Source: a virus (taxonomy: Duplodnaviria > Caudoviricetes). From it: 64,000 bases of DNA. The notes under the pieces are model-generated. The model made no database searches and was not told the origin of the DNA. It saw only the letters and a program-made list of their open reading frames with translations. Each line of letters begins with the position of its first letter. Position 1 is the stretch's first letter. The translations under genes were made by a program, and so were the position numbers. The stretch spans positions 161,080 to 225,079 of IMG/VR virus record IMGVR_UViG_3300031857_023573; one strand, given 5' to 3'. Shown here piece by piece: positions 25,428 to 62,877 of this stretch.

Positions 25428-25988
25428 TTATAGACCTAAATGATTATTGAGTTTAGTATCTCTTATTTCACTTTGAATATCACTATTGGTCTTCTCTAAG
25501 GCATATTTTAATTTCCCTGCAACATAATTTTCAACTATTAGTGTCATTATTTCAGTAGTTGAGTCTAAATTTTCAAAGTCATTTAGTGCCTTTGAATTCT
25601 TTTTAAACTTATCAGATAGTTCTGTTAGGAATTCTTCTAAGTTAAATTGTAACTGATAGAGTTCGAGTCGTAAGTCTTTTACAGTTTTTAAATACTGGTT
25701 TGTAGGATTGAATAATCCGGGTAAATCTATAAAAAATTTAGAATAAACTTTTCTTACAGTGGGTAAGACATATTCGAGTCTATTATTTCCTTCTGGATTT
25801 ATCTCAGTTTTATTTATTGTTTTAGTAAATAACTTATGTTCAAAAAGTCTGTAATGAGTATTAATTGTTTCTTTAAAGAACTTTCTCAGAGAGATCGAAT
25901 CTTGCTCGTTTTTTAATCCTCTTAATAGTGTATCTAATAAAACAACATTATCTAAATCTTTAAGTGATTTTGGATTTGAAAAAATCAT
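25428..25988 (-). CDS. hypothetical protein ending in the shared C-terminal motif
   Basis: ends IRDTKLNNHLGL. Confidence 0.6.
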   Translation of the reverse strand: MIFSNPKSLKDLDNVVLLDTLLRGLKNEQDSISLRKFFKETINTHYRLFEHKLFTKTINKTEINPEGNNRLEYVLPTVRKVYSKFFIDLPGLFNPTNQYLKTVKDLRLELYQLQFNLEEFLTELSDKFKKNSKALNDFENLDSTTEIMTLIVENYVAGKLKYALEKTNSDIQSEIRDTKLNNHLGL

Positions 25989-26488
25989 TTAGATAGTATA
26001 ATTTTTGGATATCTAAAAGGTTTCCCATCTATTGTATACCCTTTAGATATAACATCAATTATTTTTTCCTCACCGGTTTCTAGAACTGATATTACTTCGT
26101 GTAAATCGGAATCATAAGTCTCGGTTTGAATTTCCTCAATTCCTTCATTTTTAAGAAACGTACTAACTTTATTTAAGATAATATTTAATCCTTCTGAGTC
26201 AGAGATAGATTTTCTAGCAATAGATAGGTCGGAATCTAAATCTAAAATTGAGTTAAGTGTTTTAATTTTAGTATTTAAAATAAGTTCACTTTTTTCTTTT
26301 TGAACTCTTTTTTTAAAATTTTCAAATTCAGCATAAAGTCTTACATAGGAATCATGTCCTTTTTTCTCTGCAAATTCATCAAGTAGGTCATTTAAAACTA
26401 TTTCACTATCTTCTCCAAGTGAAATTTTGTAGACCATTTCTTCATCTTGTAGTAACTTTTTTTCTTTTAAAAATTCTTTTGTGTCCAT
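25985..26488 (-). CDS. grpE: nucleotide exchange factor GrpE
   Basis: RLYAEFENFKKR, YDSDLHE and KGYTIDGKPFRYPKIIL motifs. Confidence 0.9.
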   Translation of the reverse strand: MDTKEFLKEKKLLQDEEMVYKISLGEDSEIVLNDLLDEFAEKKGHDSYVRLYAEFENFKKRVQKEKSELILNTKIKTLNSILDLDSDLSIARKSISDSEGLNIILNKVSTFLKNEGIEEIQTETYDSDLHEVISVLETGEEKIIDVISKGYTIDGKPFRYPKIILSK

Positions 26489-26489
26489 A

Positions 26490-26975
26490 TTAATAATTAA
26501 ATGATAGTAATTTTTTTACGTTATTTGATACAACGAATTCATAAGTTCCGAATTGATCTGAGACTTTAAATATCTCTAAATCTTCAATTTTAACTTTAAA
26601 TTCTTCAATATAGTCGATTAATTCTGTTAAAGACTTTTTATAGATAGCATCTGGTACCCAATAGTCTGGAAACTTATCTATGAATTTATCAACAAAAATC
26701 TCTAAAGTCTTTTTTCTTATTAGTACTTGTTGATTGTTGTTTATTGAACGATTTGATAAAAAATCTACTATATGTGTATTGAACTTATGAATTAAGTTAT
26801 CTGTTTCAATAACTTTCAGTATTCCAATTACAAGCGCATCTCTTTCAGAGATTTCTACTTCTTTGTTTTCCTTTAGGATCTTTTCACCTTCTTTGTCACT
26901 TCCAACTACATAGTAGACGAAATGATCCCATACACATCTTCGCACTAAATCCTCAGGAAAAATTGTAATTTTCAT
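26490..26975 (-). CDS. hypothetical protein (start moved to ATG at 26975)
   Basis: MKITIFPEDL start is more plausible than the upstream TTG. Confidence 0.6.
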   Translation of the reverse strand: MKITIFPEDLVRRCVWDHFVYYVVGSDKEGEKILKENKEVEISERDALVIGILKVIETDNLIHKFNTHIVDFLSNRSINNNQQVLIRKKTLEIFVDKFIDKFPDYWVPDAIYKKSLTELIDYIEEFKVKIEDLEIFKVSDQFGTYEFVVSNNVKKLLSFNY

Positions 26976-27138
26976 TCTTGAAATATATTTTATTTTTATA
27001 AGTAAAAATAGTGTCAAAGTTTATATTATACTGTCAAAAACAAAAACTAACTTTTTTTAAAAAATAACGTTTTTTAAATATAGAAATGGTATATATACGT
27101 TATTATAAAAAATAACAAAAAAATAACTATTTAATGAA

Positions 27139-27387
27139 TTGAAAGACCTCATCCAAACTGAGATTGACACACCTGACGGTGTCGCTCTACTTGAACAAAT
27201 TTACATAACAGAACTAGGTCACGTAATGGCGAGAGTTTATTATAAGAAAAAAGGAATCAGAATAAATAAACGATTGACAAATTTAGAGGAATTACTCCAA
27301 AATACCGGACTCAGTGTTAAAGATGAGGAAACAATGAAGTTAAAGAAGTTAAGAGCAAAAAGAGTTTACAAAACAACTTATGGCTGA
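27139..27387 (+). CDS. hypothetical protein
   Basis: 82-aa ORF with TTG start after an A-rich leader. Confidence 0.5.
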   Translation: MKDLIQTEIDTPDGVALLEQIYITELGHVMARVYYKKKGIRINKRLTNLEELLQNTGLSVKDEETMKLKKLRAKRVYKTTYG

Positions 27388-27433
27388 CTGACAAATCAAA
27401 ACTTAAACATAATATATACTTTAAATCACGAAC

Positions 27434-61594: not shown

Positions 61595-61605
61595 GGTTAT
61601 TTCAC

Positions 61606-61643
61606 AAAAAAAGAGGACTAATTTTGAAAAGGTCCTCTTTTTT
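61606..61643 (+). terminator. intrinsic terminator
   Basis: AAGAGGAC / GTCCTCTT stem with flanking A and T tracts. Confidence 0.75.
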
Positions 61644-61660
61644 ATTAAATAAATAGATTC

Positions 61661-61879
61661 ATGACGATACAAATAGTTTTAATAAATGAGTATGGTGAGT
61701 TCTATGGAGAACACCTAAAAGTAACAGTTGAACAATACTCTAATATCATAGAAATGTCAAAGAACTTCTATGAAACAGGATTTGAGATGTCGGATGAAGA
61801 TGGTGGATTTTTGATTATTCCCCCAGAAATAGTAAAAAAATCAATTTTAAAAGTTAAGATACTAGAAGAAAATGTTTAG
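61661..61879 (+). CDS. hypothetical protein
   Basis: 72-aa ORF coupled to the next gene. Confidence 0.55.
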   Translation: MTIQIVLINEYGEFYGEHLKVTVEQYSNIIEMSKNFYETGFEMSDEDGGFLIIPPEIVKKSILKVKILEENV

Positions 61880-62525
61880 AAATAGATTTAAGAAGTTTGG
61901 TGGAGGGTATGTAACTGATATCGTAGAGTACTTGAAAGAGTACTTAGAAAAAGATCCTACAACTACAATTAGTGTTGGTTGTGACTCGATTCAGAAACGT
62001 AAAAGAACAATTTATGCCTGCACAATAATGTTATATAATACTGACATTAGAAACGGAGCTCACGTTGTTTTCTTTAGAGAGAATATCGAAAAAATTAGAG
62101 ATAATTTCGAGCGTCTTCACAAAGAAGCTCAATTTTGCCACGACATTGCGCAGTTTTTAGATCAAGAACTTTCTCCCTTTTATCAAAGAAGGGATCTTAG
62201 TGACTGGGAGAGAAAGAGGTATAAATTTCACCTTTTAAGATGTGAAGGAAAATATGATTATGTTCCGCCACATCAAGAAGAGACTTTTATTAAAAATATC
62301 TCTCTGTCAGACTATGAAAAGACTAATATGCCAGGACTTGTGGATATTCACGTTGACTTTAATCCTCGTGAGGGTTCAATTAGTGAAAGAGGTGTACAAA
62401 AAAATAGATCGTATCTTGCTTATAATGCTTATGTTCCGTGGCTCAGAGGTCTAAACTTTAGAGTTTGGGCAAAACCACAATCACCAGCATCATCAAGTGC
62501 GGCAGACTTGTTGCTACAAGATTAA
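61872..62525 (+). CDS. RNase H-like YkuK/DUF458 family protein
   Basis: ISVGCDS, RLHKEA, IHVDFN and KPQSPASSSAAD motifs. Confidence 0.8.
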   Translation: MFRNRFKKFGGGYVTDIVEYLKEYLEKDPTTTISVGCDSIQKRKRTIYACTIMLYNTDIRNGAHVVFFRENIEKIRDNFERLHKEAQFCHDIAQFLDQELSPFYQRRDLSDWERKRYKFHLLRCEGKYDYVPPHQEETFIKNISLSDYEKTNMPGLVDIHVDFNPREGSISERGVQKNRSYLAYNAYVPWLRGLNFRVWAKPQSPASSSAADLLLQD

Positions 62526-62526
62526 T

Positions 62527-62877
62527 ATGTTTGAAATTAATTCGGGTTTACTTAGAAGAATGGGGTGGAGAGATTACTCAATACACCGTGGTATCGGAGT
62601 TGATATAAATTTTTATGAAGAGGATTACAAAGTTAAATACTTTATCCTACTTCAAGATAGAAAGTTATGTTATGTAATTAAGGAATTTAAATCTGAAAAT
62701 AAACTTCAAAAACATAATGAATATAAATTTATAAAAGTGGATTACTCAAAGAAAAAACCAAAGTTTTTTACTTTCGATTTTGATTCGAATATAGAACTTA
62801 TGAATTTACTTAGAGAAAATTTAGCTTGTAATTTAAGTTACCAAAGATTTTTCCAAATTAACTCAATAATAAAATGA
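62527..62877 (+). CDS. hypothetical protein ending in a variant of the shared C-terminal motif (start moved to 62527)
   Basis: ends QRFFQINSIIK. Confidence 0.55.
   Translation: MFEINSGLLRRMGWRDYSIHRGIGVDINFYEEDYKVKYFILLQDRKLCYVIKEFKSENKLQKHNEYKFIKVDYSKKKPKFFTFDFDSNIELMNLLRENLACNLSYQRFFQINSIIK

Follow-up and report, generated by a model that had tools for sequence, protein, structure and literature searches.

Several well-described systems mark proteins with a short terminal peptide. In bacteriophage T4, the capsid targeting sequence (CTS) of the internal proteins IPI-III and of Alt is N-terminal, is expressed late and is removed by the gp21 protease. The XB tail of SspB docks to the N-domain of ClpX, and the poxvirus ankyrin/PRANC F-box-like proteins dock to the host SCF. 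Clamp-binding peptides, among them the PIP box (Qxx[LIM]xx[FY][FY]), the tails of T4 gp43, gp33 and gp55 and the bacterial QL[SD]LF motif, plug a pocket with a short helix, and the cargo-loading peptides of encapsulins and microcompartments bind the inner face of a shell that, in encapsulins, has the HK97 fold, like the phage capsid. Known C-degrons of the ClpX and ClpA types require a free carboxylate at a fixed distance, and MinD and FtsA have membrane-targeting amphipathic C-terminal helices. The subject here is a C-terminal peptide of about ten residues, hereafter the tag, encoded repeatedly in a 64,000-nucleotide stretch of DNA (the window) from a virus of the Caudoviricetes (positions 161,080 to 225,079 of IMG/VR record IMGVR_UViG_3300031857_023573). 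An initial annotation had pointed to this peptide on six to seven small, otherwise unrelated proteins lacking an N-terminal capsid signal, and had proposed it as a second addressing code.

With the CTS, the peptide shares a length of about ten residues and a distribution over unrelated phage proteins, which in T4 are read by one assembly; it differs in being C-terminal, 0–6 residues from the end, whereas a CTS is N-terminal and is cut after L/I-x-E by the prohead protease. As in SspB and the PRANC proteins, which dock to one machine, a short constant C-terminal peptide or module sits on variable bodies, but there is no sequence likeness, the ClpC-like ATPase of these phages has no N-domain, and the tag occupies 14–16% of the proteome, with docking a prediction. 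Clamp-binding peptides likewise are often at the extreme C-terminus and space their hydrophobic residues i, i+3 and i+4, the first being followed by an acidic or amide residue. The tag departs from their consensus, however, having neither Gln nor aromatics and an invariant Arg at i-4, and some 140 clients would be unprecedented for a clamp. The clamp families PF09116, PF02916 and PF02768 had no match in five phage genomes, in a search where the PF02916 control was also silent and phage clamps are known to diverge fast. The terminal peptides of encapsulin and microcompartment cargo are also short and borne by unrelated proteins; here, in contrast, the promoter motif of structural genes is scarce before the tagged genes, and a search of four genomes found neither shell gene (PF04454, PF00936). 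Nor does the tag resemble the ssrA/ClpX degron, which is read in its last two to three residues with the free carboxylate: the trailing residues here are K, N, D, S or G and number 0–6, exceptionally up to 17. The type IX C-terminal domain (CHU_C/Por_Secre_tail) is a β-sandwich of ~80 amino acids paired with a Sec signal peptide, unlike this ten-residue helix on proteins with few hydrophobic segments. In the literature on C-terminal motifs of huge and jumbo phages and on DPYGEE, a variant described below, no description of the tag was found.

Enrichment at C-Termini

The window, at ~30% GC, has a high coding density, with 75 genes found by greedy open reading frame calling, and its DNA is present in metagenomes of 15 studies labeled as lake, freshwater or "fungus"; none of the sequencing runs that contain it is listed as RNA. 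The window had no match at the nucleotide level in the phage collection searched, and comparison genomes were picked through its DnaK, whose nearest relatives are those of the uncultured huge phages LR745206.1 (634,780 bp; 80% protein identity) and LR756502.1 (642,428 bp; 77%); remoter matches came from LR756501.1 (735 kb), LR756504.1 (636 kb), LR756508.1 (484 kb) and the Lak phages. Four genomes were used complete (LR745206, W01; LR756502, W02; LR756501, W03; LR756504, W04) and two in part, 400 kb each (Lak-A1, W05, code 15; LR756508, W06), and one gene-calling procedure was applied to all six.

The strict pattern R[DE].[KQ][LI]..[LI][LI] matches three times in the 20,445 residues of the window, each time no more than two residues from a C-terminus, where 0.03 matches were expected; the looser R...[LI]..[LI][LI] is found at five window C-termini against 0.15 expected. 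Since these patterns were defined on the very data that they describe, a separate test was made on the relatives. The looser pattern was fixed on the window, and its matches within six residues of the C-terminus were compared with within-protein shuffles. LR745206 has 96 such matches against 1.8 expected, LR756502 has 100 against 1.7, and LR756504 has 81 against 1.6, a 50–60 fold enrichment in three tag-bearing genomes. Inside proteins, matches are near the shuffle level. Three other huge phages, spanning 26–40% GC, are tag-poor: LR756501 has 3 matches (1.0 expected), Lak-A1 none (0.5) and LR756508 two (0.9). Chance among C-termini rich in K, L and I, named beforehand as the outcome that would sink the proposal, is thereby excluded, because LR756501 (32% GC) and Lak-A1 (26% GC) are as rich in these residues as the tag-bearing genomes and show no enrichment. 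Moreover, a blind search over three-residue gapped patterns in the last 14 residues returned R..K[IL], RD.K and R...[IL]...L as the top patterns in LR745206 and LR756502, with log10 P from -30 to -62.

The six to seven tagged proteins of the initial annotation greatly underestimate the scale. By the pattern together with a position-weight matrix (PWM) built from relatives, 135 of the 927 genes of LR745206 and 153 of the 965 of LR756502 are tagged, alongside 6 of the 75 in the window, so that in this freshwater huge-phage clade the tag is borne by 14–16% of genes, about one protein in seven. The median tagged protein is 115 amino acids (aa) long (range 50–731), and the tagged genes sit in arrays; between 617 and 642 kb of LR756502, nearly every gene is tagged.

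Anatomy of the Tag

The consensus reads h-R-[DEN]-x-K-[IL]-[ND]-x-[IL]-L, where h is hydrophobic, followed by 0–4 residues, rarely up to 17, and the stop. The motif first described thus stands, with positions 2 and 4 relaxed, having been drawn too strictly. In a logo of 178 sites, all selected by a search pattern that fixes R0, about half of the sites have a hydrophobic residue at position -1, position 1 is D (46%), E (23%) or N (21%), and position 3 is K (63%). Positions 2 and 6 are free. Position 4 is divided between I (54%) and L (46%), position 5 favors N (37%) and D (21%), position 7 is I (67%) or L (33%), and position 8 is L (81%) or I (19%). Most often a single residue separates the tag from the stop (79 cases), then two (39), three (25), none (22) or four (13), mostly K, N or D; beyond ten residues the distribution of motif-to-stop distances is flat. 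Plotted on a helical wheel, R0, I4, I7 and L8 line up in a single stripe that K3 borders on one side and D1 and N5 on the other, and the free positions 2 and 6 point away from this conserved face. With three hydrophobic positions, the tag has a net charge near zero. The tagged proteins themselves carry an ordinary net charge and are not enriched in hydrophobic segments, a transmembrane-like segment being found in 8% of them as against 13% of untagged small proteins.

The tag varies between lineages. LR756504 bears R-K-x-[K/R/I]-I-[E/N/D]-x-L-[L/I] on ~110 proteins, a change from D, E or N to K at position 1 that alters the charge; R0, I4, L7 and L/I8 are retained across the variants. LR756501 lacks the R-based tag altogether. 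About 40 of its proteins end instead in [L/D]-D-P-Y-G-E-E-x-W-x-x-stop (example region L100:14495-15247), and among these 40 are six fragments, each from either the gp23-like capsid protein, the gp21-like prohead protease or the tail sheath.

Selection on the Peptide and Diversity of the Bodies

The synonymous codons used at R, K, I and L of the tag match genome usage, minor codons included. Arginine, for example, is encoded by AGA in 75%, AGG in 17% and CGT in 5% of tags, compared with 73%, 13% and 7% genome-wide. Selection therefore acts on the peptide. A motif at the DNA level was also sought in the window copies and discarded, none being visible and codon choice being free.

The bodies that precede the tag are diverse. 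Once the tag had been removed, the 446 tagged proteins of four genomes fell into 329 clusters, 277 of them singletons, by BLAST and three profile rounds. As initially proposed, the proteins are otherwise unrelated: none of the seven window proteins belongs to a Pfam or PHROG family, and leave-one-out profiles of the last 34 or 90 residues fail. An extended homology in the form of a ~30-residue MAFFT block was rejected, as leave-one-out hidden Markov models missed the member left out. Among the longest tagged proteins of relatives, nine were searched, with essentially no Pfam family found. The tag is portable. Most homologues that seem to lack it carry a degenerate or extended copy, and in two homologue pairs the terminal 14–15 residues are cleanly present in one protein and absent from the other. 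Some bodies are recognizable as pieces of larger proteins, such as the major capsid protein or, in the form of an M-domain copy, ClpC, yet such cases are few: 8 of 438 small proteins with the R-based tag (1.8%) match part of a large protein, versus 3.9% of untagged small proteins.

One body could be followed in depth. In a library of 1.8 billion proteins, the product of the gene at 40264-40803 has a family of 94 representatives, each less than 50% identical to the others, and the C-terminus of almost every full-length member reads [YW]-R-[EDQ]-I-[QK]-[IL]-x-x-[IL]-[LI]. Across an alignment of 71 sequences, the sole invariant column is that of R170, the tag arginine, and the tag columns carry 2.47 bits per column compared with 1.81 for the body. 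An AlphaFold2 model made with the family alignment has a predicted local distance difference test (pLDDT) score of 96.5 and a predicted template modeling (pTM) score of 0.90, and places the tag at the end of a helix spanning residues 159–178. The model has no fold match in the PDB or in the AFDB clusters, and the family profile has no significant match among PDB sequence profiles; the family is possibly a new fold.

Promoter Classes and the N-Terminal Tag

A different, T4-CTS-like pattern, M..K[FY]..[FY]..E, is enriched at N-termini in the window (15823-58243) and in LR745206 and LR756502 (198 matches vs. 35 expected). None of the tagged genes of the window carries it, in agreement with the initial annotation, and just 2–4 proteins have both tags where ~13–16 were expected. 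Two motifs, TAATATATA and TAnnTTTG, predominate upstream of the first genes of runs. The former lies upstream of the prohead protease gene in both LR745206 and LR756502 and of the major capsid gene in LR756502; it precedes 65–69% of N-tagged runs, 28–30% of other runs and a mere 8% of C-tagged runs, a depletion with an odds ratio of 0.18 (P=7e-13). TAnnTTTG, in turn, lies upstream of C-tagged runs more often than of others (odds ratio 2.45, P=5e-5). From these motif counts we infer that the C-tagged genes are not late genes, and they are probably read early by the host polymerase. Here lies a further difference from the T4 system, in which tag and head genes are expressed together: on the evidence of the motif, the C-terminal tag shows no such coupling. 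The phage instead has a separate, CTS-like N-terminal tag under TAATATATA, and the C-terminal tag avoids both. The proposal of a second and separate code of the addressing type is thus borne out insofar as a C-anchored helical peptide motif recurs on unrelated small proteins, almost never shares a protein with the N-terminal tag, and belongs to a different promoter class.

Tagged Genes of the Window

All seven peptides listed in the initial annotation were recovered from the window exactly as quoted, six of them closing their genes, and the positions attached to them there are the low ends of the genes (Table 1). In five of the six gene-ending cases (25428, 35569, 40264, 45778 and 62497) the tag is kept by orthologues. 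The seventh peptide, in 40010-40300, is followed by a long extension; extensions of 8–17 residues after the tag are also seen in orthologue pairs, those of 15–17 residues in pairs of the relatives. The single-sequence AlphaFold2 model of 55900-56400 is unreliable (pLDDT 39), although a C-terminal helix is drawn at residues 146–161. A weak match of 62497-62877 to the prohead protease fell within a 14-residue repeat region and was set aside, and 63449-63778, which ends …VRKTGFVNILR, was ruled out as an eighth case, being a fragment of a CHU_C domain. The last codons of 35569-36048 (…L-I-N-I-stop, TTAATTAATATATAG) overlap a TAATATATA motif at 35577 on the minus strand, which could drive the next downstream gene.

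Table 1. Tagged genes and other features of the window (PWM, score against the matrix built from relatives)
Position	Strand	Feature	Length (aa)	C-terminal sequence	PWM	Homologues and remarks
25428-25988	-	Tagged gene	186	IRDTKLNNHLGL	14.3	His at tag position 7 instead of I/L; orthologue W01_462235 ends ...DRDIKIKSITSD
35569-36048	-	Tagged gene	159	LRDNKLESLINI	17.5	Homologue W02_501380 has RDNKINSIL, then an 8-residue extension
40264-40803	-	Tagged gene	179	WRDIQIQNLLK		
45778-46131	+	Tagged gene	117	KREFILKNLLD	14.4	Homologue W02_511888 ends KRNLIIKKII
55900-56400	+	Tagged gene	166	IRELKISRLLS	19.2	No orthologue among six relatives
62497-62877	+	Tagged gene	126 or shorter (inner ATG)	QRFFQINSIIK		Variant tag, F at position 1; kept in orthologues W01_525104 (YQRHFKLNKLLK) and W02_575703 (YQRHFTINKIFK)
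40010-40300	-	Possible tagged gene		KRLRRIESLL, 17 residues before stop		Real start probably the ATG overlapping the stop of 40264-40803; no orthologue among six relatives
29055-30935	-	DnaK				
31097-33802	-	Six PKD repeats and CHU_C type IX secretion C-terminal domain	901			
47220-52612		Two adjoining large genes	1220, 571			Many internal repeats common to both; GC-rich island (44% vs. 30%)
63449-63778	+	Partial copy of the CHU_C domain of 31097-33802	109			

Host

The window encodes a large protein with a CHU_C domain (Table 1), and LR756502 a 1670-aa SprB-repeat protein that also has one. Upstream of genes in the relatives, TAnnTTTG, a Bacteroidota promoter element, is enriched. These features make a freshwater bacterium of the Bacteroidota, equipped with a type IX secretion system, the probable host.

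Candidate Readers

Several hubs had been suggested to read the peptide, among them a clamp, a chaperone and a MoxR/VWA system. None of these was borne out. DnaK and a ClpC-like AAA+ ATPase are found in untagged as well as tag-bearing genomes, and no clamp was detected. The ClpC-like double AAA+ ATPase, at 423224-425329 in LR745206, has a UVR-type M-domain and a VGF loop for ClpP, and in place of an N-domain an acidic, disordered N-terminus. It is found in all six genomes. Tag-bearing phages have two to three true ClpP paralogues, and untagged Lak-A1 encodes ClpP as well; no Lon was detected in the phage genomes. Two tagged mini-proteins, W01_296085 and W02_320919, carry a copy of segment 298–358 of the ClpC M-domain.

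A reader of the vWA type fared better in one respect. A complete operon of PrkA (YeaG), YeaH (DUF444, with a vWA-like MIDAS motif) and SpoVR (YcgB) lies at 480112-484920 of LR745206, recurs in LR756502 and LR756504, and is absent from LR756501, Lak-A1 and LR756508; its distribution over the six genomes is thus that of the tag. PrkA/YeaG is tied to ATP-dependent, starvation-induced proteolysis, and in Escherichia coli YeaG drives starvation-induced bulk proteolysis (PMC9512850; PMC13684143). A phyletic profile yielded ~50 gene families of LR745206 that are common to LR756502 and LR756504 and absent from LR756501, 20 of them annotated, among which PrkA and SpoVR, with YeaH between them, were the only ones to stand out mechanistically; the remainder comprise one ClpP paralogue, metabolic or nucleic-acid enzymes and families with no match. 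The lead is weakened, however, by the Ralstonia jumbo phage RsoM2USA, which has a PrkA (56% identity) and no visible tag in 100 kb. Both the ClpC–ClpP and the PrkA modules are leads only.

Interpretation and Alternative Explanations

The account we favor, and consider probable by a modest measure, is that the tag is a portable docking helix for one common reader. The tag, as the last 2.5 turns of a helix (~10 residues), would present a conserved face of R0, K3, I4, I7 and L8, with D1 and N5 at its rim, to a groove in another molecule, and a single reader, encoded by phage or host, would grip all tagged proteins as one class. That class appears to consist of small, cytoplasmic, fast-evolving proteins, encoded in dense arrays without the late promoter motif, and its handling could be recruitment, localization or timed disposal. 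A docking handle is preferred because a helix packed merely on its own body would not keep a polar rim across unrelated bodies. Several points weigh against this account. In the 40264-40803 protein, the tag is modeled within a long helix (pLDDT ~95) and may pack against the rest of the protein instead of projecting freely. That the bodies appear unrelated rests on sequence methods, with one fold modeled confidently. The promoter classes come from motif counts, not expression data, and neither motif precedes 68% of the tagged runs. Lastly, every candidate reader is put forward on co-occurrence, none having been found.

If disposal were the purpose, the tag would be a degron, a special case of the common reader in which the tagged protein itself is consumed: early proteins would be timed for destruction by the phage ClpC-like ATPase with ClpP or by PrkA–YeaH–SpoVR. 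The phages do encode the ATPase with its ClpP-docking loop and two to three ClpP genes, PrkA is linked to proteolysis (PMC9512850; PMC13684143) and is confined with its partners to the three tag-bearing genomes of the six, the tagged genes fall in a non-late promoter class, and threading from the end of a protein would explain the terminal position. A degron nevertheless seems rather unlikely, as the ATPase is universal among the six genomes and ClpP extends to untagged Lak-A1, RsoM2USA pairs PrkA with no visible tag in 100 kb, the 0–17 residues that may follow the tag are at odds with fixed-distance C-degrons, and a tag predicted to be helical and ordered, with a conserved polar rim, would be atypical. 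Disposal might conceivably be turned on other proteins. The tagged proteins would then make up an extensive adaptor library under rapid renewal, each member joining a variable bait to a constant handle that plugs into a phage AAA+ protease such as the N-domain-less ClpC–ClpP or PrkA–YeaH–SpoVR, the bait holding a host protein, for example a defense sensor that recognizes pieces of capsid, protease or sheath. We regard this elaboration as very unlikely to be correct as it stands.

The remaining explanations dispense with a reader. Tandem amplification of one or a few small ancestral genes, the C-terminal helix being kept for their own fold or function, would account for the tandem arrays, for the many evident paralogues among LR756504 neighbors (...FWTLAEYRKLIIEDLI), for the fairly narrow size range around the median of 115 aa, and for the continuity of tag helix and body in the confident 40264-40803 model. 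It is quite unlikely given the number of clusters and singletons that survive profile iteration, lengths that run from 50 to 731 aa, bodies made of capsid protein fragments or of a ClpC M-domain copy, and the two pairs in which the tag is cleanly present or absent; an intramolecular helix, moreover, would not keep R0, D1, K3 and N5 on different bodies. A helix that binds membranes, or that bundles by self- or hetero-association, is highly improbable. Its amphipathic character and extreme C-terminal position do recall MinD and FtsA, but it has no more than three hydrophobic positions, conserved acidic or amide residues at positions 1 and 5 and almost no net charge, position 1 becomes Lys in LR756504, and the acidic DPYGEExW tail of the sister phage would be incapable of membrane binding. 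Scarcely credible, finally, is a signal in nucleic acid or translation, whether a 3′ element in DNA or RNA or an effect of the nascent peptide that couples termination to the next gene. The next gene does overlap or start within 5 nt for 55% of tagged genes as opposed to 34% of untagged ones; yet the other 45% are not tightly coupled, the codons of the tag vary freely, in the proportions of the genome, the window copies have no DNA motif in common, and the spacing to the stop varies by 0–6 residues or more.

Implications

Most genes of huge phages lack a known function, and a label that gathers 14–16% of them into one functional class would offer a way to approach hundreds of orphan genes in each genome, a C-tagged class distinct from the N-tagged class of head cargo. 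The use of quite different C-terminal tags by sister phages suggests paired evolution of tag and reader. The tag peptide could serve as bait for the reader, and a portable tag of ten residues is a possible tool. Were the adaptor library real, it would be a viral system of targeted protein degradation, its handle and reader swapped as a unit between related phages (R-D-x-K-I-x-x-I-L versus DPYGEExW). More broadly, if the reader turns out to be a protease or a localization hub, the tag would represent a new viral way to organize a large accessory proteome.

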